Positions 23,224 to 64,000 of a stretch of DNA of 64,000 nucleotides are shown here, in pieces. The first letter of the stretch is position 1, and every line of letters begins with the position of its first letter. The notes beneath the pieces were generated by a model. The model did not search any database, had not been told where the DNA came from, and saw only the letters and a list, made by a program, of their open reading frames with translations. The stretch lies in assembly GCA_964016885.1 (NCBI GenBank), contig OZ024745.1:3968001-4032000 (forward strand), in the 5' to 3' direction. Made by a program: the position numbers and the translations under genes. Source of the DNA: Eledone cirrhosa (taxonomy: Eukaryota).

Positions 23224-23389
23224 ATAATTGAATATGAAAATAGAGTCCGAGCATATTCTACACCAGACAAGATATTCCGTTATTTTGCAACCTTGAAAGT
23301 TCATAATGCGGAGACAAGTGAATATGAAATTTGTATGACTCCATCTGATTTTGTGCGGTCAATAACTCCTGGGGTGAAACAACCTGATG
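23224..23389 (+). CDS. MICU1: Internal coding exon of calcium uptake protein 1, mitochondrial (166 nt, phase 0 to 1)
   Basis: Acceptor is ttttcatttatttccag| and donor is |gtaggt. The exon translates as [55 protein letters not shown], matching the recalled MICU1 segment [24 protein letters not shown]...[12 protein letters not shown]. Confidence 0.96.
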
Positions 23390-41345: not shown

Positions 41346-41383
41346 GTCTTGGTTTAGATCAGTTCCGTAAATTTGATCCTAAG
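41346..41383 (+). CDS. MICU1: Short internal coding exon of MICU1 (38 nt, phase 1 to 0)
   Basis: Acceptor is tcttcatttttccag| and donor is AAG|gtaagt. It joins the previous exon in frame as (G)LGLDQFRKFDPK, matching the recalled human LGLDQYIIKRFDGK. Confidence 0.93.
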
Positions 41384-42617: not shown

Positions 42618-43309
42618 CGAGTGCCCAACCGGCATACTGCCTACGGAGGCAATTTTTCTTGCAACCATACACCTATATGTATATATATATATTATATATA
42701 CATTGATAGTATCATTCTAAATTTATGAATTTTACATCAAAAGTGTCATGTAGTGAGTAATTTTCTAGGTATTATTACATGAAATATTATATAATAAGTC
42801 AAAATATATGTGTATGTATATATTTGCATGTTTTTATTGTTTATATATTTATTTGCATAGTAAATTTATGAATTTTTCGTTTGTTTAATGGAAAATGTGT
42901 TTGTTTTTAATTTATAATGTTTAATTTCAGCTCAGTTAAAATATTTTGTATTAAATCTGATATTAAATGTTAGTTATTTTTTAGGTTTTTTTTATAGTTC
43001 AAATTGAGTGACATAGATTCTCGGGATTTTTAATTCTTTATTGAGTTAAATCTAATGCATTAACCTGTCAGATCCATGAAGTAGCTTGAAAATGTTACTT
43101 TGTCATTATTAACTTGGTACTTTTAGGAATGTTTCTCTTTAAACATCTACTTACACAGCAGTATATCAAAATAAAATTAATTTTTGTCAATTTTATTTCC
43201 ATCATACATATCTTTATATTCTACTTATAGGTATATTTTACTTGCTTTTTGCAACATATAGCACACATACTTAATAACTTATACTACATGTGAAGCTTAT
43301 TTTGTGGAG

Positions 43310-46426: not shown

Positions 46427-46438
46427 AAGGATTCATTG
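46427..46438 (+). CDS. MICU1: Candidate 12-nt alternative microexon of MICU1 (KDSL)
   Basis: Sequence is ttatttatttcatctctttttggcttttag|AAGGATTCATTG|gtgagt, with a long pyrimidine tract and consensus donor. It preserves frame after the phase-0 exon end. Confidence 0.6.
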
Positions 46439-49590: not shown

Positions 49591-50707
49591 GATTATGATT
49601 GAATTTAATCTAGCTGTAAGTAATCCAGGGAGAGATACGTTATTTTGTCACTTTCCCTTTTAAGGGGTAAATGAAGAGTGAAGTGACTGTATTGACACTT
49701 ATTATATCAACCTTAATAGGATCTGGAATTTGTTGCTTGAGACATCAAATCAAATAATATATCAACTTTGTTAATTGCCTGTAATACTCAAGAACTAAAT
49801 ATCAATCATTATCATCATCATAAGCCAGAAAACATATACAGTCCTTTGATTACATATTCATCAGCTTGAAAATTATGTTTTTTTTCTTCCTTACACTTCC
49901 CCAAAATACTGCTGACAAATGAGTAACTTAGCTTGAAATATTCCTTGAAATAAAAATGTTTGAATAATCATTAGATGTTTTTATATTTTTGTTTCCTTCT
50001 GTGGCAAAGTATCTACAAGTATCTTAAAATATATAAATATTAGTTATAAGTTATAAGTTATTAGTAGTATTTTTCATTAAACTTCTTTGTCTCTGATGGA
50101 GACATAAGTCTACAAGTTTATAAGTTGCTGATATCTTCAATTCTTTTAATTAAAGATAAATATGCAGATGAGTCCTGCTACAAAAGAATGCCTTCTTGCA
50201 GTTCACTGAGAAAGTCTACCAAAACAAGTTTTACTATTTTCTATTTTAGTGTAGTTTCAGATTTCATTATTTTTCTTTGTATATATAATGAATATATATT
50301 TAATCTATATTTTACATACATATCTCAGTATTTTAAAAATGGTTTCAAATTTTTAGCATTCATAAAGTGTTGTTTTTTTTCCCCTCACTAACATGGTTTT
50401 GCTAGGTCTACAAATTTTGACATTTGCATGTCTTTTTGCCATGGATATTTACATGTGAATATTTTCATAATACTAACCTATTTTTTTCTCATGAACTGGA
50501 GTCTTTTTATTTTCTAGTTAATGAAGCTTTGATATAATCATATTGTTTCATTTAACATAAATGCAGACTATCTCAAGTAAAATGAAAATATGTTGTTTTT
50601 TTATATTGCCGTGGCATAGCCTCATTTTCATACCTTTGAAGACTGTGTTCTTTTTTTATTCTTTTCATTTTTTCCATATCAAAACACAAGTTATTATATA
50701 TATATAG

Positions 50708-50895: not shown

Positions 50896-51198
50896 ATTAT
50901 ATATATATAGTGTTATGTCACTACTTGCTGTTTTGTCATATAACACAAGATATTACATATATATAGTATGTAACTACTTGCTGTCATAAAATGTTGAAAT
51001 ATGGTAGAAAGAATTGGATGAATTCTTAATATCATGTTTTTATGATCAAGATAAGTTGTAATGAAGGTTTCTAAGTTGAGGAATAGTCCAAAATAATATT
51101 GTCATTTAGAAAACATTTAAAACATGAAATCTTTAAATGTCAAAATAATTGTACTGCTATTGTAATAATTCTCTTCATTTTTTTACTAGTTATATCTC

Positions 51199-52677
51199 AT
51201 AAATTGCTACAAAGGTAAAGGGAATGCTCTGGAGGGGAGCAATTATAGGGGTATAAAACTGATGGATCAGGTTATGAAAGTGGCTGAAAGTATATTAGCG
51301 CAACTAATTAGAGAAAGGGTCAAACTAGATGAGATGCAGTTTGGTTTTGTACCTGGTAAAAGTTTTACAGATGCCCTCTTCTTGCTGAGACAATTACAAG
51401 AGAGGTTCTTAGAGAAGAATAAGCCACTATACTTAGCTTTTGTTGACCTAGAGAAGGCCGTTGATAGGGTACCCCAATCTGTCATCTGGTGGTCCCTAAG
51501 GAAACTAGGTGTAGAGGAATGGCTTGTGAGGACAGTACAAAGTTTGTATAGAGGTGCTGTCAGTAAAGTGAGGGTAGGAATGGAGTTTAGTGAGGAATTC
51601 CAGATACAAGTAGGAGTACATCAGGGTTCATTCCTCAGCCCGCTCTTGTGCATTATAGTCCTCCAAGCCATAACAGGAGTTTAAGACTGGCTGTCCATGA
51701 GAACTTCTCTATGCTGACGATCTGGTTCTTATAGCAGAATCAGTAGAGGAGCTAGAGAATAAATTCTGGCTATGGAAACAGCAGTTGGAATCAAGAGGAC
51801 TGAGAGTGAACCTAGCTAAGACAAAAGTGTTGATGAGTAGAAAAGAGGACAAAACTCTGATTCCATCAGGGAAATGGCCATGTTCGATATGCAGAAAAGG
51901 AACTGGCATAAATTCTATAAAATGCACACAATGCAGATCTTGGGTACACAAGAGATGTAGTGGGAAAGCAGGCAAACTAACAGGTAGGGGAAAATACGTA
52001 TGCAGTAGAGGTACAGGGAAATTAGACAGTAGAAGTCGCATTGATAGACACATTTTTCAAATGCAGGCGGGTGCTATAGAAGTGGTGGATAGCTTCCGAT
52101 ACCTAGGAGATCAGATTAGCATGGGAGGGGGGTGTTTTGAGGCCATAGTATCTAGAATAAGGACGGGTTGGAAGAAGTTTAGGGAGCTGCTTCCTCTGCT
52201 GACAAAGAAGGGTTTCTCTCTGCGCACGAAAGGCCGGTTATATGATGCATGTATGAGGAGTGCGATGCTGCATGGAGGTGAGACTTGGGCAGCAACTGCA
52301 GAGGATATGTGACGGCTGGAGAGAAATGATGCAAGCATGCTCCGTTGGATGTGCAATGTCAATGTGCGTGAACAACCGAGCATGAATGTGTTGAGAGGGG
52401 TAAATTGTAGTGTGCGAGAGAGGAGACTGATGGTATGGACATGTGATACGCATGGAGGATGACCGATGGGTGAAGAAGTGCCAGGAAATGCCAGTTGAAG
52501 GAAGACGTGGTAGAGGTAGACCATGAAAAACATGGGTGGAGGTGGTGAGAGCAGACCTCTGATCGCTGAAGCTCACGGAGATGACGAAGGACCGTGACAA
52601 GTGGAGAGATGCTGTGCTGAATAGGACCCGTCCCACCCTTGCAAGCAGGGAAAAGCGGACGTAAAATGATGATGATG
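51199..52677 (+). mobile_element. 5'-truncated RTE-clade LINE with a disrupted reverse transcriptase
   Basis: Motifs include NCYKGKG..NYRGIKL, QFGFVPGK, LAFVDLEKAVDRVP, GVHQGSFLSP, LYADDL (YADD at 51710-51721), FRYLGD and MLHGGETW. There is a frameshift near 51678 plus in-frame stops. The element ends in an (atg)n tail, with a candidate TSD atatctc at 51192-51198 and 52678-52684. Confidence 0.95.
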
Positions 52678-53002
52678 ATATCTCTTTCTCACTTCTTTTC
52701 TCTCCTTCTCTTGAATAAATTGGAATAAAAGATGGTCGAAAATCTATGTTTCAGTATAGATTCCAATGGAGACTTAGCCACACATTGTCATAGAGATTTT
52801 ATCTTTCTAAAATATAATTTAGCAACCAATATGTTGCTACCGTCATCTGTTTTTACTTTTGCAAGATTGGTAATTATTAGATCTCTTTATTTGAAGTTTG
52901 ATCTTATAAGATGATGAAGGATGATATATCATCATTTAATATTTCTTATACGATAGCTTGCACACAAAAATAATATCAATATTATTTCTTTAATGATTGC
53001 TC

Positions 53003-55133: not shown

Positions 55134-55831
55134 TGAGTATTGTATATTTTAAGAGCTTTATCAAGAAGTTGTTCCTGTCTTCTACAATGTCAAGAAATGT
55201 AACAACAGTTTCTTCTTCCAACCACTTATATTCGCATATCCATGTAGTCATTGGAAAAAGGAACATACTAATGACAGAGTCTCTATATATGGTCACTTGA
55301 CATGCCTGAAATAACAGCCTATCATCTTAGTAAAGGACATGTTGGATAATGTGGTCCATTCACACAAGGAAACGTGTGGGTCATGACTGGAATATTTTTG
55401 GTCATAGATCTTCTCACTCAGTACTGACCTGGGGTTAAACAACAACATTCATATTTTTCCTTCCAATAAAATCAACAAAAAAACAACATGTCCCTCATCT
55501 TTCCATTGTTAAAGTATCTGGGGGTAAAAGAACACATGCTTATCACTTCTTTGTTGCTTGGTTTAATCTAAGGAATTTCAATCATTTTGCAACAATTTTA
55601 TTCAGCCTTCACTGCCTTTTATTATTTTTTTAATTGAATTCTTCTGCATGTCTTTCTAAATTACATGTCTCTCTTAAATTTCCAAGAAAACAACAGTAGC
55701 TGTTCATTGTCATTTGCTGTTTTACTGCTGCTATATGTTGTTGTTGTTTAAAACTTATTGTCAACAACGGTTGGTATGAGTTCTTCTCTATATGGTCATT
55801 TCATTACATTCTACTTTACTTCTTTAATCAG

Positions 55832-55849
55832 AACCCTCGGATATCAAAG
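55832..55849 (+). CDS. MICU1: Candidate 18-nt alternative microexon of MICU1 (NPRISK)
   Basis: Sequence is ttctactttacttctttaatcag|AACCCTCGGATATCAAAG|gtaagt, with a pyrimidine tract and perfect AAG|GTAAGT donor. It preserves frame, has no stop, and is GC-richer than its flanks. Confidence 0.65.
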
Positions 55850-56193
55850 GTAAGTTTAAATTCCCCTCAAACTGCTTACAAAAGGCTTTAGTATATTAAA
55901 GCAGGAATCTTATCAAGCATCTCACTGACAAATCTTCCTAATTTAGTTAAACTTTCAATCAGACAAAATATTTCTTTCAAAACCCTTTCCTTAAAACCCC
56001 TCTAATTGACACATTAAAATCACTGAGAGGTATGACTTCCTCTTCCTACTCCCTACCTAACACTGCATTCATTCCCTCCACAAATATTAGCTACATCTGC
56101 AAATATATGAATTAAACATATAAATGTTACTTAAGATTGTCTTTTTACATAATACAGTAGACAGTGGGATAAAAGTATTTCTAGATTCTATTG

Positions 56194-59100
56194 GCTCTCC
56201 TTAATCAGAAGATAGAAAGGTAGATGACATCAACACAGTGTAGTTTATAGTGTTATAGCTCTCCTTAATCAGAAGATAGAAAGGTAGATGACATCAACAC
56301 AGTGTAGTTTATAGTGTTATAGCTCTCCTTAATCAGAAGATAGAAAGGTAGATGACATCAACACACTGTAGTTTATAGTGTTATAGCTCTTCTTAATCAG
56401 AAAATAGAAAGCTAGATGACATCAACACAGTGTAGTTTATAATGCTATAGCTCTCCTTAATCAGAAGTCTGAAAGGTAGATGACATCAACACAGTGTAGT
56501 TTATAGTGTTATAGCTCTCCTTAATCAGAATCTGAAAGGTAGATGACATCAACACAGTGTAGTTTATAGTGTTATAGCTCTCCTTAATCAGAATCTGAAA
56601 GGTAGATGACATCAACACAGTGTAGTTTATAGTGTTATAGCTCTCCTTAATCAGAAGTCTGAAAGGTAGATGACATCAACACAGTGTAGTTTATAGTGTT
56701 ATAGCTCTTCTTAATCAGAAGATAGAAAGCTAGATGACATCAACACAGTGTAGTTTATAGTGTTATAGCTCTCTTTAATCAGAAGATAGAAAGGTAGATG
56801 ACATCAACACAGTGTAGTTTATAGTGTTATAGCTCTCGTTAATCAGAGGATAGAAAGGTAGATGACATCAACACAGTGTAGTTTGTAGTGTTATAGCTCT
56901 CGTTAATCAAGTGAAAAAAAGGTAGATGACATCAACACAGTGTAGTTTATAGTGTTATAGCTCTCGTTAATCAGAGGATAGAAAGGTAGATGACATCAAC
57001 ACAGTGTAGTTTATAGTGTTATAGCTCTCCTTAATCAGAAGATAGAAAGGTAGATGACATCAACACAGTGTAGTTTATAGTGTTATAGCTCTCCTTAATC
57101 AGAGGATAGAAAGGTAGATGACATCAACACAGTGTAGTTTATAGTGTTATAGCTCTCCTTAATCAGAAGGTAGAAAGGTAGATGACATCAACACAGTGTA
57201 GTTTATAGTGTTATAGCTCTCCTTAATCAGAAGATAGAAAGGTAGATGACATCAACACAGTGTAGTTTATAGTGTTATAGCTCTCCTTAATCAGAAGATA
57301 GAAAGGTAGATGACATCAACACAGTGTAGTTTATAGTGTTATAGCTCTCCTTAATAAGAAGATTGAAAGGTAGATGACATCAACACAGTGTAGTTTATAG
57401 TGTTGTAGCTCTCCTTAATCAGAAGATAGAAAGGTAGATGACATAAACGCAGTGTAGTTTATAGTGTTATAGCTCTCCTTAATCAGAAGATAGAAAGGTA
57501 GATGACATAAACGCAGTGTAGTTTATAGTGTTATAGCTCTCCTTAATCAGAGGATAGAAAGGTAGATGACATCAACACAGTGTAGTTTATAGTGTTATAG
57601 CTCTCCTTAATAAGAAGATTGAAAGGTAGATGACATCAACACAGTGTAGTTTATAATGTTATAGCTCTCCTTAATCAGAAGGTAGAAAGGTAGATGACAT
57701 CAACACAGTGTAGTTTATAGTGTTATAGCTCTCCTTAATAAGAAGATTGAAAGGTAGATGACATCAACACAGTGTAGTTTATAATGTTATAGCTCTCCTT
57801 AATCAGAAGGTAGAAAGGTAGATGACATCAACACAGTGTAGTTTATAGTGTTATAGCTCTCCTTAATAAGAAGATTGAAAGGTAGATGACATCAACACAG
57901 TGTAGTTTATAGTGTTGTAGCTCTCCTTAATCTGAGGATAGAAAGGTAGATGACATCAACACAGTGTAGTTTATAATGTTATAGCTCTCCTTAATCAGAA
58001 GGTAGAAAGGTTGATGACATCAACACAGTGTAGTTTATAGTGTTATAGCTCTCCTTAATCAGAGGATAGAAAGGTAGATGACATCAACACAGTGTAGTTT
58101 ATAGTGTTATAGCTCTCCTTAATCAGAGGATAGAAAGGTAGATGACATCAACACAGTGTAGTTTATAGTGTTATAGCTCTCCTTAATCAGAGGATAGAAA
58201 GGTAGATGACATCAACACAGTGTAGTTTATAGTGTTATCGCTCTCCTTAATCAGAAGTCTGAAAGGTAGATGACATCAACACAGTGTAGTTTATAGTGTT
58301 ATAGCTCTCCTTAATCAGAAGACAGAAAGGTAGATGACATCAACACAGTGTAGTTTATAGTGTTATAGCTCTTCTTAATCAGAAAATAGAAAGCTAGATG
58401 ACATCAACACAGTGTAGTTTATAGTGTTATAGCTCTCCTTAATCAGAGGATAGAAAGCTAGATGACATCAACACAGTGTAGTTTATAGTGGTATAGCTCT
58501 TCTTAATCAGAAGATAGAAAGGTAGATGACATCAACACAGTGTAGTTTATAGTGTTATAGCTCTCCTTAATCAGAAGATAGAAAGGTAGATGACATCAAC
58601 ACAGTGTAGTTTATAGTGTTATAGCTCTCCTTAATCAGAAGATAGAAAGGTAGATGACATCAACACAGTGTAGTTTATAGTGTTATAGCTCTTCTTAATC
58701 AGAAAATAGAAAGGTAGATGACATCAACACAGTGTAGTTTATAGTGTTATAGCTCTTCTTAATCAGAAAATAGAAAGCTAGATGACATCAACACAGTGTA
58801 GTTTATAGTGTTATAGCTCTCCTTAATCAGAAGATAGAAAGGTAGATGACATCAACACAGTGTAGTTTATAGTGTTATATCTCTTCTTAATCAGAAGATA
58901 GAAAGGTAGATGACATCAACACAGTGTAGTTTATAGTGTTATAGCTCTTCTTAATCAGAAAATAGAAAGCTAGATGACATCAACACAGTGTAGTTTATAG
59001 TGTTATAGCTCTCCTTAATCAGAAGATAGAAAGGTAGATGACATCAACACACTGTAGTTTATAGCTCTTCTTAATCAGAAAATAGAAAGGTAGATGACAT

Positions 59101-62100
59101 CAACACAGTGTAGTTTATAGTGTTATAGCTCTCCTTAATCAGAAGATAGAAAGGTAGATGACATCAACACAGTGTAGTTTATAGTGTTATACCTCTCCTT
59201 AATCAGAGGATAGAAAGGTAGATGACATCAACACAGTGTAGTTTATAGTGTTATAGCTCTCCTTAATAAGAAGATAGAAAGGTAGATGACATCAACACAG
59301 TGTAGTTTATAGTGTTATAGCTCTTCTTAATCAGAAGTCTGAAAGGTAGATGACATCAACACAGTGTAGTTTATAGTGTTATAGCTCTCCTTAATCAGAA
59401 GATAGAAAGGTAGATGACATCAACACAGTGTAGTTTATAGTGTTATAGCTCTCCTTAATCAGAATCTGAAAGGTAGATGACATCAACACAGTGTAGTTTA
59501 TAGTGTTATAGCTCTTCTTAATCAGAAGATAGAAAGCTAGATGACATCAACACAGTGTAGTTTATAGTGTTATAGCTCTCCTTAATCAGAAGATAGAAAG
59601 GTAGATGACATCAACACAGTGTAGATTATAGTATTATAGCTCTCGTTAATCAGAGGATAGAAAGGTAGATGACATCAACACAGTGTAGTTTATAGTGTTA
59701 TAGCTCTCGTTAATCAAGTGAAAAAAAGGTAGATGACATCAACACAGTGTAGTTTATAGTGTTATAGCTCTACTTAATCAGAAGATAGAAAGGTAGATGA
59801 CATAAACACAGTGTAGTTTATAGTGTTATAGCTCTCTTTAATCAGAGGGTAGAAAGTTAGATGACATCAACACAGTGTAGTTTATAGTGTTATAGCTCTC
59901 CTTAATCGGAAGATAGAAAGGTAGATGACATCAACACAGTGTAGTTTATAGTGTTATAGCTCTCCTTAATCAGAAGACAGAAAGGTAGATGGCATCAACA
60001 CAGTGTAGTTTATAGTGTTATAGCTCTCCTTAATCAGAAGACAGAAAGGTAGATGGCATCAACACAGTGTAGTTTATAGTGTTATAGCTCTCCTTAATAA
60101 GAAGATAGAAAGGTAGATGACATCAACACAGTGTAGTTTATAGTGTTGTAGCTCTCCTTTATCAGAAGATAGAAAGGTAGATGACATAAACGCAGTGTAG
60201 TTTATAATGTTATAGCTCTCCTTAATCAGAAGGTAGAAAGGTAGATGACATCAACACAGTGTAGTTTATAGTGTTATAGCTCTCCTTAATCAGAAGATAG
60301 AAAGTTGGATGACATCAACACAGTGTAGTTTATAGTGTTATAGCTCTCCTTAATCAGAAGACAGAAAGGTAGATGGCATCAACACAGTGTAGTTTATAGT
60401 GTTATAGCTCTCCTTAATAAGAAGATTGAAAGGTAGATGACATCAACACAGTGTAGTTTATAGTGTTGTAGCTCTCCTTAATCAGAAGATAGAAAGGTAG
60501 ATGACATAAACGCAGTGTAGTTTATAATGTTATAGCTCTCCTTAATCAGAAGGTAGAAAGGTAGATGACATCAACACAGTGTAGTTTATAGTGTTATAGT
60601 TCTCCTTAATCAGAAGATAGAAAGGTAGATGACATCAACACAGTGTAGTTTATAGTGTTATAGCTCTCCTTAATCAGAAGATAGAAAGGTAGATGACATC
60701 AACACAGTGTAGTTTATAGTGTTATAGCTCTCCTTAATCAGAGGATAGAAAGGTAGATGACATCAACACAGTGTAGTTTATAGTGTTATCGCTCTCCTTA
60801 ATCAGAAGTCTGAAAGGTAGATGACATCAACACAGTGTAGTTTATAGTGTTATAGCTCTCCTTAATCAGAGGATAGAAAGGTAGATGACATCAACACAGT
60901 GTAGTTTATAGTGTTATAGCTCTCCTTAATCAGAAGGTAGAAAGGTAGATGACATCAACACAGTGTAGTTTATAGTGTTATAGTTCTCCTTAATGAGAAG
61001 ATAGAAAGGTAGATGACATCAACACAGTGTAGTTTATAGTGTTATAGCTCTCCTTAATCAGAAGATAGAAAGGTAGATGATATCAACACAGTGTAGTTTA
61101 TAGTGTTATAGCTCTCCTTAATCAGAAGATAGAAAGGTAGATGACATCAACACAGTGTAGTTTATAGTGTTATAGCTCTCCTTAATCAGAAGACAGAAAG
61201 GTAGATGACATCAACACAGTGTAGTTTATAGTGTTATAGCTCTCCTTAATCAAAAGATAGAAAGGTAGATGACATAAACGCAGTGTAGTTTATAATGTTA
61301 TAGCTCTCCTTAATCAGAAGGTAGAAAGGTAGATGACATCAACACAGTGTAGTTTATAGTGTTATAGTTCTCTTTGATCAGAAGATAGAAAGGTAGATGA
61401 CATCAACACAGTGTAGTTTATAGTGTTATAGCTCTCCTTAATCAGAAGTCTAAAAGGTAGATGACATCAACACAGTGTAGTTTATAGTGTTATAGCTCTC
61501 CTTAATCAGAGGATAGAAAGGTAGATGACATCAACACAGTGTAGTTTATAGTGTTATAGCTCTCCTTAATCAGAGGATAGAAAGGTAGATGACATCAACA
61601 CAGTGTAGTTTATAGTGTTATAGCTCTCCTTAATCAGAGGATAGAAAGGTAGATGACATCAACACAGTGTAGTTTATAGTGTTATCGCTCTCCTTAATCA
61701 GAAGTCTGAAAGGTAGATGACATCAACACAGTGTAGTTTATAGTGTTATAGCTCTCCTTAATCAGAAGACAGAAAGGTAGATGACATCAACACAGTGTAG
61801 TTTATAGTGTTATAGCTCTTCTTAATCAGAAAATAGAAAGCTAGATGACATCAACACAGTGTAGTTTATAGTGTTATAGCTCTCCTTAATCAGAGGATAG
61901 AAAGCTAGATGACATCAACACAGTGTAGTTTATAGTGGTATAGCTCTTCTTAATCAGAAGATAGAAAGGTAGATGACATCAACACAGTGTAGTTTATAGT
62001 GTTATAGCTCTCCTTAATCAGAAGATAGAAAGGTAGATGACATCAACACAGTGTAGTTTATAGTGTTATAGCTCTCCTTAATCAGAAGATAGAAAGGTAG

Positions 62101-64000
62101 ATGACATCAACACAGTGTAGTTTATAGTGTTATAGCTCTTCTTAATCAGAAAATAGAAAGGTAGATGACATCAACACAGTGTAGTTTATAGTGTTATAGC
62201 TCTTCTTAATCAGAAAATAGAAAGCTAGATGACATCAACACAGTGTAGTTTATAGTGTTATAGCTCTCCTTAATCAGAAGATAGAAAGGTAGATGACATC
62301 AACACAGTGTAGTTTATAGTGTTATATCTCTTCTTAATCAGAAGATAGAAAGGTAGATGACATCAACACAGTGTAGTTTATAGTGTTATAGCTCTTCTTA
62401 ATCAGAAAATAGAAAGCTAGATGACATCAACACAGTGTAGTTTATAGTGTTATAGCTCTCCTTAATCAGAAGATAGAAAGGTAGATGACATCAACACACT
62501 GTAGTTTATAGCTCTTCTTAATCAGAAAATAGAAAGGTAGATGACATCAACACAGTGTAGTTTATAGTGTTATAGCTCTCCTTAATCAGAAGATAGAAAG
62601 GTAGATGACATCAACACAGTGTAGTTTATAGTGTTATACCTCTCCTTAATCAGAGGATAGAAAGGTAGATGACATCAACACAGTGTAGTTTATAGTGTTA
62701 TAGCTCTCCTTAATAAGAAGATAGAAAGGTAGATGACATCAACACAGTGTAGTTTATAGTGTTATAGCTCTTCTTAATCAGAAGTCTGAAAGGTAGATGA
62801 CATCAACACAGTGTAGTTTATAGTGTTATAGCTCTCCTTAATCAGAAGATAGAAAGGTAGATGACATCAACACAGTGTAGTTTATAGTGTTATAGCTCTC
62901 CTTAATCAGAATCTGAAAGGTAGATGACATCAACACAGTGTAGTTTATAGTGTTATAGCTCTTCTTAATCAGAAGATAGAAAGCTAGATGACATCAACAC
63001 AGTGTAGTTTATAGTGTTATAGCTCTCCTTAATCAGAAGATAGAAAGGTAGATGACATCAACACAGTGTAGATTATAGTATTATAGCTCTCGTTAATCAG
63101 AGGATAGAAAGGTAGATGACATCAACACAGTGTAGTTTATAGCGTTATAGCTCTCGTTAATCAAGTGAAAAAAAGGTAGATGACATCAACACAGTGTAGT
63201 TTATAGTGTTATAGCTCTACTTAATCAGAAGATAGAAAGGTAGATGACATAAACACAGTGTAGTTTATAGTGTTATAGCTCTCTTTAATCAGAGGGTAGA
63301 AAGTTAGATGACATCAACACAGTGTAGTTTATAGTGTTATAGCTCTCCTTAATCGGAAGATAGAAAGGTAGATGACATCAACACAGTGTAGTTTATAGTG
63401 TTATAGCTCTCCTTAATCAGAAGACAGAAAGGTAGATGGCATCAACACAGTGTAGTTTATAGTGTTATAGCTCTCCTTAATCAGAAGACAGAAAGGTAGA
63501 TGGCATCAACACAGTGTAGTTTATAGTGTTATAGCTCTCCTTAATAAGAAGATAGAAAGGTAGATGACATCAACACAGTGTAGTTTATAGTGTTGTAGCT
63601 CTCCTTTATCAGAAGATAGAAAGGTAGATGACATAAACGCAGTGTAGTTTATAATGTTATAGCTCTCCTTAATCAGAAGGTAGAAAGGTAGATGACATCA
63701 ACACAGTGTAGTTTATAGTGTTATAGCTCTCCTTAATCAGAAGATAGAAAGTTGGATGACATCAACACAGTGTAGTTTATAGTGTTATAGCTCTCCTTAA
63801 TCAGAAGACAGAAAGGTAGATGGCATCAACACAGTGTAGTTTATAGTGTTATAGCTCTCCTTAATAAGAAGATTGAAAGGTAGATGACATCAACACAGTG
63901 TAGTTTATAGTGTTGTAGCTCTCCTTAATCAGAAGATAGAAAGGTAGATGACATAAACGCAGTGTAGTTTATAATGTTATAGCTCTCCTTAATCAGAAGG
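56194..64000. repeat. 64-bp satellite array, about 122 copies, continuing past the right edge
   Basis: Unit is gctctccttaatcagaagatagaaaggtagatgacatcaacacagtgtagtttatagtgttata, starting at 56194 and 56258. Confidence 0.99.

Follow-up and report, generated by a model that had tools for sequence, protein, structure and literature searches.

Does an 18-nt segment in a repeat-rich intron of Eledone cirrhosa represent a real microexon, and if so, how is its inclusion controlled and what would the added peptide do? The window, i.e. the whole stretch of 64,000 nt that was analyzed (G000:C5:3968001-4032000 of the 3.0-Gb assembly), is tandem repeat for the most part, and its + strand carries part of the MICU1 gene. 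A sequence-only reading had proposed a microexon encoding NPRISK, with splicing-factor motifs upstream and tissue-regulated inclusion. Our preferred reading, held with moderate confidence, is an in-frame MICU1 cassette that is skipped in one spliced data set and is likely to be tissue-regulated. The NPRISK peptide would lengthen a loop and would likely shift the calcium threshold of the uniporter. In the stricter usage, microexons measure 3-27 nt. A bound of 51 nt or less is given in PMC12064062.

The Host Gene and the Intron

The identification of the host gene as MICU1 and the parallel to vertebrates (see below) are additions to what had been found earlier. A constitutive exon of 166 nt (IIEYENR...KQPD) at 23224..23389 on the + strand was matched by phmmer to human MICU1 chains (E 2e-20). 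It has 95% identity to MICU1 from Argonauta and 91% to that from Octopus sinensis. The upstream partner of the microexons is a constitutive 38-nt exon (G LGLDQFRKFDPK) at 41346..41383 (+), which ends in phase 0. Its peptide, GLGLDQFRKFDPK, is identical to Argonauta MICU1 in 13/13 residues. The next constitutive exon (HEDYPELEL...) is located beyond the window at L007:861, and all further downstream exons were found in L007. The exon-matched stretches are 87-100% identical to MICU1 from Argonauta and O. sinensis, and the ortholog from O. vulgaris/sinensis matches human MICU1 with an E value of 1e-145. We assign the host gene to MICU1, the protein with the best similarity over the whole length, rather than to MICU2/3.

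The intron that holds the microexons, from 41384 of the window to L007:860, is 73,477 nt long, of which 48,950 nt (two-thirds) are tandem repeat. At 51190-52700 of the window, it carries a broken reverse-transcriptase fragment, which we take to be a LINE-type element. T-rich intronic stretches at 50380-50680 and 42780-43100 contain one TGCATG each (at 50425 and 42825), and no convincing in-frame small exon was found near either of them. On the - strand of L007:9400-9850, about 1.5 kb past the MICU1 stop, there are Pro/Gly-rich stretches with apparent exon borders; these probably belong to a neighbouring convergent gene.

The NPRISK Exon and Its Splice Sites

The microexon, AACCCTCGGATATCAAAG, is located at 55832..55849 (+) and encodes NPRISK. 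It is in phase 0 on both sides, its 18 nt are a multiple of three, and it is flanked by canonical AG/GT. The acceptor reads cttctttaatcag, with its last base at 55831. The 3' splice-site region (55781..55831, +) has 16/20 pyrimidines, a single TCTC at -47, no TGC, and CAG as the acceptor. The nearest preceding AG is at -53, which leaves about 50 nt free of AG. For nine constitutive exons, the preceding AG is at -19 to -31 in seven cases and at -51 in one, and one exon has none within 60 nt. At the other end, AAG is followed by the consensus donor GTAAGT (55850..55855, +), the score of which equals that of the best constitutive donors of the gene. All of the letters described in the sequence-only reading (acceptor, exon, AAG/GTAAGT, TGCATG, and the TGCT/YGCY cluster) are indeed in place.

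The whole 73,477-nt intron was scanned under strict conditions (YAG to a strong donor, 3-60 nt). Among 168 candidates, just two are in frame, stop-free and pyrimidine-rich: NPRISK (55832-55849) and a segment encoding KDSL (46427-46438). A splice-site score was also derived from 9 acceptors and 8 donors of the gene itself; it is crude, and one training acceptor is off by one base. With this score, NPRISK ranks first among 25,720 AG..GT pairs of 3-60 nt (18.8; runner-up 15.0) and first among the 2,215 pairs that are in frame (runner-up 10.8). KDSL falls outside the top 25 in-frame rows, a mark of the crudeness of the score. The NPRISK acceptor taken alone scores 6.6, with constitutive acceptors ranging from -2.5 to 10.1. 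No good branch-point consensus was found between -100 and -10 of the exon, and there is no excess RNA structure in 55600-55900 (folding z -0.24). The exon is far beyond what chance would provide, and it is almost certainly real.

Orthologous Exons in Octopods and Variation in Related Proteins

The ortholog survey covered 10 protein clusters and listed 16 octopod MICU1 proteins (15/20 members of the Octopus cluster, plus Argonauta); the octopod isoforms are automated gene models. NPRTSK or NPRTPK is present in 8/16 of the listed proteins, where it follows either RKFDPK itself or (K)DSL, and is absent from the other eight. Among the proteins listed, NPRTSK occurs in 6/11 from O. sinensis, 1/4 from O. 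vulgaris and 1/1 from Argonauta, with three sequences common to the O. sinensis and O. vulgaris counts. NPRTPK occurs in 1/3 of the listed proteins from O. bimaculoides. The included form is, in this way, annotated in four other octopod species. The protein-database search that had been suggested for an NPRISK-type insert was successful, as it retrieved the orthologous NPRT[S/P]K from annotated octopod MICU1.

The octopod exon (O. sinensis XP_029657331.1, O. bimaculoides XP_014771003.1, Argonauta GAB1597365.1) agrees with the NPRISK exon in gene, junction, length and order after KDSL. NPRISK has 5/6 residues identical to NPRTSK and 4/6 to NPRTPK. Position 4 of the hexapeptide is Ile in this genome, whereas the annotated octopod orthologs have Thr. 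The annotated octopod exon is the ortholog of the NPRISK exon. In the O. sinensis models, three cassettes occur in combination: KDSL or DSL, NPRTSK, and DMSTELVEGLE.

A further survey yielded 18 Logan proteins in three clusters, the representatives of which are 72-73% identical to the Octopus protein. They are probably from squid or cuttlefish. The site is spanned by 15/18 of them: eight have no insert, two have N, one has NPNNRNR, and four have an acidic insert, in some cases together with KDSL.

No description of a cephalopod MICU1 microexon was found in the literature covered, subscription journals being outside this coverage. The surprise is limited, because the orthologous exon is already present in public gene models of other octopods; microexons at the MICU1 junction are well studied in mammals.

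Transcript Evidence in Eledone cirrhosa

One run of unrecorded kind (X4) was analyzed, with contigs over L007:560-1180, the region of the downstream exon (two contigs in all). The contigs cover only the exon in this region, and their loose ends continue into neighbouring exons, which is spliced behaviour. A contig of 909 nt runs straight from the end of exon 41346-41383 into the exon at L007:861, its 5' loose end corresponding to 41352-41381 of the window. As upstream and downstream exons are directly joined, both microexons are skipped in this contig. The skipped form of the NPRISK exon exists in this organism.

An inclusion contig was found in 0 of the 2 contigs from this one run. This says little, because contigs drop minor variants. 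The X4 contigs are interrupted precisely where the downstream exon begins (L007:859), with a mean depth of 189 before and 322 after this position. This break may be due to a second incoming splice path that was left out.

The proposal of an 18-nt microexon is thus borne out: it is a frame-preserving cassette with the top score of the intron, its orthologs have inclusion and skipping isoforms, and skipping occurs in this organism. Likewise, the exon adds a basic hexapeptide in frame, as had been claimed.

Sister Cassettes

The second of the two strict candidates is a cassette microexon of 12 nt at 46427..46438 (+), encoding KDSL. It has a TAG-AAG tandem acceptor, which would also give a 9-nt form encoding DSL. 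KDSL and DSL isoforms are both annotated in O. sinensis, and KDSL is also found in Logan proteins. Scallops have KDDVHSL at the same junction as octopod KDSL. If used together, the KDSL and NPRISK exons would generate combinatorial loop variants. The octopod cassette set (KDSL/DSL, NPRxSK, and the acidic 11-mer) allows 12 combinations, with an insert charge of -4 to +2.

No convincing match to the third cassette, D[MV]S[TA]ELVEGLE, turned up in this assembly. A splice-bounded BLOSUM scan of the whole intron gave nothing convincing (best score 18), a degenerate codon profile reached at best 17.5 of 49.2 in 336 windows downstream of the microexon, and the exact degenerate pattern has 0 matches genome-wide. 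The cassette may have been lost or have diverged strongly, or the assembly may lack it.

The Adjacent Satellite

The microexon region is adjoined by a locus-specific satellite with a 64-nt unit and about 417 copies (56194..64000, +, continuing to about 4050866 of G000:C5). It starts 345 nt past the microexon. A 46-nt unit pattern has 79 exact matches in the genome, all of them inside this array. The unit carries an AG..GT pseudo-exon (ttaatcag/AAGATAGAAAG/gtagat), which is 11 nt long in 257 copies and 10 nt long in 12. These pseudo-exons would be frame-shifting if used, and they score below the true exon.

An origin of the satellite from the microexon is not supported: depending on which of four scoring schemes is used, the microexon is equalled by 13, 32, 73 or 353 of 3420 control windows, and with longer windows, the microexon window ranks 35 of 4484. 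Derivation from the third cassette was rejected (rank 105 of 336). The satellite is adjacent to the microexon, and a part in the mechanism is not indicated.

The Same Junction in Vertebrates and Other Bilaterians

Octopod RKFDPK aligns with human KRFDGK, which places the insertion point exactly at the one used by MICU1.1 and MICU1.2 of vertebrates. According to PMC8909990, MICU1.1 contains exon 5' (EFWQ, muscle) and MICU1.2 contains exon 5'' (TE, brain). In the same report, MICU1.1 binds calcium more tightly, raises calcium uptake and escapes inhibition by MICU2, whereas the TE exon alone leaves MICU1-MICU2 gating unchanged and has little effect in human cells. The loop that takes up the insert is described there as unresolved in crystal structures.

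A vertebrate survey was seeded with a hagfish fragment and gave 104 new rows, 94 of which were parsed. Right after DGK, 39 of the parsed rows have no insert, 18 have DFWQ, 11 have DFWQTE, 6 have TE, and 20 have other inserts, including AGQQRSRN from lamprey. In scallops, oysters, Gigantopelta and amphioxus, isoforms are distinguished from one another by this junction alone, and the peptides there are unrelated. The junction is the most length-variable linker of the alignment, with 21 distinct lengths in 90 rows, isoforms having been included by choice. The insert occupies residues 259-264 of the Octopus protein, in which the loop of EF-hand 1 starts at residue 315.

The octopod cassettes resemble vertebrate MICU1.1, MICU1.2 and MICU1.3 in several respects: the microexons are in frame, are used singly or together, and enter at an aligned junction (after FDGK / FDPK), and the loop in question lies apart from the EF-hands. 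However, NPRISK differs from DFWQ and TE in length and shares zero residues with them. Its net charge is +2, compared with -1 for the vertebrate inserts, and Octopus has three cassettes at the junction versus two in human. With regard to orthology of the NPRISK exon to vertebrate exons 5' and 5'', the insertion point is the same, but the exon sequences are not related. The octopod exon is likely a parallel use of an old intron position rather than an inherited exon, because its peptide is unrelated to E/DFWQ or TE.

Recurrent tissue-specific exons at bilaterian hot-spot positions have been reported (PMC8797185; bioRxiv 10.64898/2026.09.05.749416). In these, too, unrelated short exons occur at one position in distant lineages. 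The main texts of the two reports have 0 occurrences of MICU1, which their supplements may list. The eight-tissue set of bioRxiv 10.64898/2026.09.05.749416 includes O. bimaculoides.

Upstream Motifs and Candidate Regulators

Three factors had been connected to the exon on the basis of upstream motifs: RBFOX, MBNL and Srrm4/eMIC. By sequence match, a TGCATG (RBFOX consensus; 55645..55650, +) is a candidate site 187 nt upstream of the exon. Three YGCY within 18 nt (MBNL-type consensus; 55715..55732, +) are a second candidate site. Their positions are 55715, 55726 and 55729 (-117, -106 and -103), and they also represent the TGC triplets nearest to the acceptor.

Motif frequencies were compared with those in 200-nt windows free of tandem repeats (423 from the two long introns of the gene, 2575 from 264 kb) and with 5000 dinucleotide shuffles. 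Windows over the microexon's own TGCATG are masked out of this background by a weak 17-nt repeat call. TGCATG is present in 19/423 and 147/2575 windows and in 8.8% of shuffles. At least three YGCY per 200 nt occur in 63/423 and 633/2575 windows and in 34% of shuffles. A cluster of three YGCY within 20 nt is less common (0/423 and 40/2575 windows; 0.9% of shuffles). Only this tight YGCY cluster, which was selected post hoc, is uncommon relative to the controls; TGCATG by itself is unremarkable, and YGCY density is ordinary. TGCATG and the tight cluster occur jointly in 3/2575 windows and 0.04% of shuffles; with motif and window size chosen post hoc, this joint figure is suggestive.

One explanation is that of a neural microexon switched on by the eMIC domain of Srrm234 without a nearby UGC. 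We consider this rather unlikely. As a hallmark, eMIC-dependent exons have a UGC between the branch point and the AG, together with a weak 3' region (bioRxiv 2021.02.24.432780; bioRxiv 2024.09.17.613571). This hallmark, as invoked in the sequence-only reading, is lacking, because the nearest TGC (-103) is beyond the AG at -53; the 100 nt before the acceptor contain no TGC. Also, no good branch point was seen between -100 and -10, and the acceptor (6.6) is not weak but similar to constitutive ones, whereas fly eMIC exons are reported to have very weak 3' regions (bioRxiv 2021.02.24.432780). Other properties are shared with Srrm3/4-dependent neural microexons, namely, the size of 18 nt, the preserved frame, the strong (consensus) donor and the AG-free stretch of about 50 nt before the acceptor, to which one TCTC can be added. 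Moreover, UGC between branch point and AG is reported for 74-79% of SRRM3/4-dependent human microexons and is thus absent in 21-26% (bioRxiv 2024.09.17.613571). In zebrafish, two micu1 microexons are srrm3-dependent and drop in srrm3 mutants, as reported in PMC13281805.

A second explanation, to which we attribute a similarly low probability, is that RBFOX and/or MBNL decide on inclusion via the upstream motifs, as RBFOX2 does for vertebrate MICU1.1. MICU1.1 is reported to require RBFOX2 (PMC8909990). The rare co-occurrence of the two motifs speaks for this explanation, as does the finding that only 1/11 mapped exons, the NPRISK exon, has a TGCATG within 300 nt upstream (a few mapped exon ends are off by one base). 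However, each motif is unremarkable alone or was selected post hoc, and the TGCATG coincides in part with the beginning of a local duplication of 17 nt. No GCATG was found within 300 nt downstream of the exon. According to PMC12064062, RBFOX and MBNL act as repressors when bound upstream and as activators when bound downstream. Repression would thus be expected from both factors, because the candidate motifs are upstream, where both reportedly promote skipping. If functional, the upstream UGCAUG and the YGCY cluster would more likely act as silencers of inclusion. In addition, MBNL1 is reported not to be required for MICU1.1, and the predicted MBNL sites at this exon to be non-functional (PMC8909990). 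Of the link to RBFOX and MBNL, the presence of the motifs stands, while their upstream position, the lack of a downstream GCATG and the non-functional MBNL sites at MICU1.1 weaken it. Factors other than these and eMIC proteins may also control the exon.

Proposed Mechanism and Function

The preferred reading remains that of a tissue-regulated MICU1 cassette. A very short exon in a 73-kb intron would be passed over by default. The consensus donor and the pyrimidine-rich acceptor could rescue it wherever splicing factors are suitably balanced. In those tissues that included it, the variable loop ahead of EF-hand 1 would become longer and more basic, and this might change the gating threshold of the mitochondrial uniporter. 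We infer that inclusion of the exon is likely to be tissue-regulated. For an effect of NPRISK on calcium uptake, the prospects are nearly even, and we propose it tentatively. Inserts at this position may be without consequence, because TE alone leaves MICU1-MICU2 gating unchanged in vertebrates.

The exon may also be real yet nearly neutral. In that case, a tolerant loop would accept any short in-frame insert, inclusion would be low or noisy, and gating would be unchanged. Inserts at the junction are wholly different among lineages, this linker is the most variable in length (with the choice of rows noted above), the third cassette is apparently missing here, and TE is reported to have little effect in human cells (PMC8909990). 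The peptide drifts, with T replaced by I here and S by P in O. bimaculoides, which, like the missing third cassette, fits relaxed constraint. Near-neutrality is nevertheless unlikely in our view, given that the frame is kept, that at least 4/6 residues are identical across Octopus, Argonauta and this genome, and that a perfect donor persists inside an intron that is two-thirds tandem repeat. A chance or decayed pseudo-exon, with splicing lost in this species, would agree with the lack of an inclusion contig in run X4 and with the one residue that differs from all listed orthologs, but it is highly improbable in view of the top splice-site score of the intron, the intact frame, the 5/6 identity to an annotated exon, and the loss of minor variants from contigs.

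As for the cassette reading, a much broader version can be formulated, which is speculative and which we hold to be doubtful. The MICU1 loop might be a hot spot for microexons throughout the bilaterians, and it might set the calcium threshold of the uniporter. The octopod cassettes would then be independent and switched between neurons and muscle in the manner of vertebrate MICU1.1 and MICU1.2, with the acidic exon lost and about 400 decoy units gained a short way past the basic exon in this genome.

According to PMC8909990, there is as yet no explanation of how the four-residue insert of MICU1.1, in a loop distant from the EF-hands, increases calcium affinity. The unrelated natural inserts from octopods, bivalves, amphioxus and lamprey represent a panel with which to ask if sequence, charge or loop length is decisive. 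If inclusion is tissue-specific, this would be a clear parallel between cephalopods and vertebrates in the control of mitochondrial calcium uptake by splicing.
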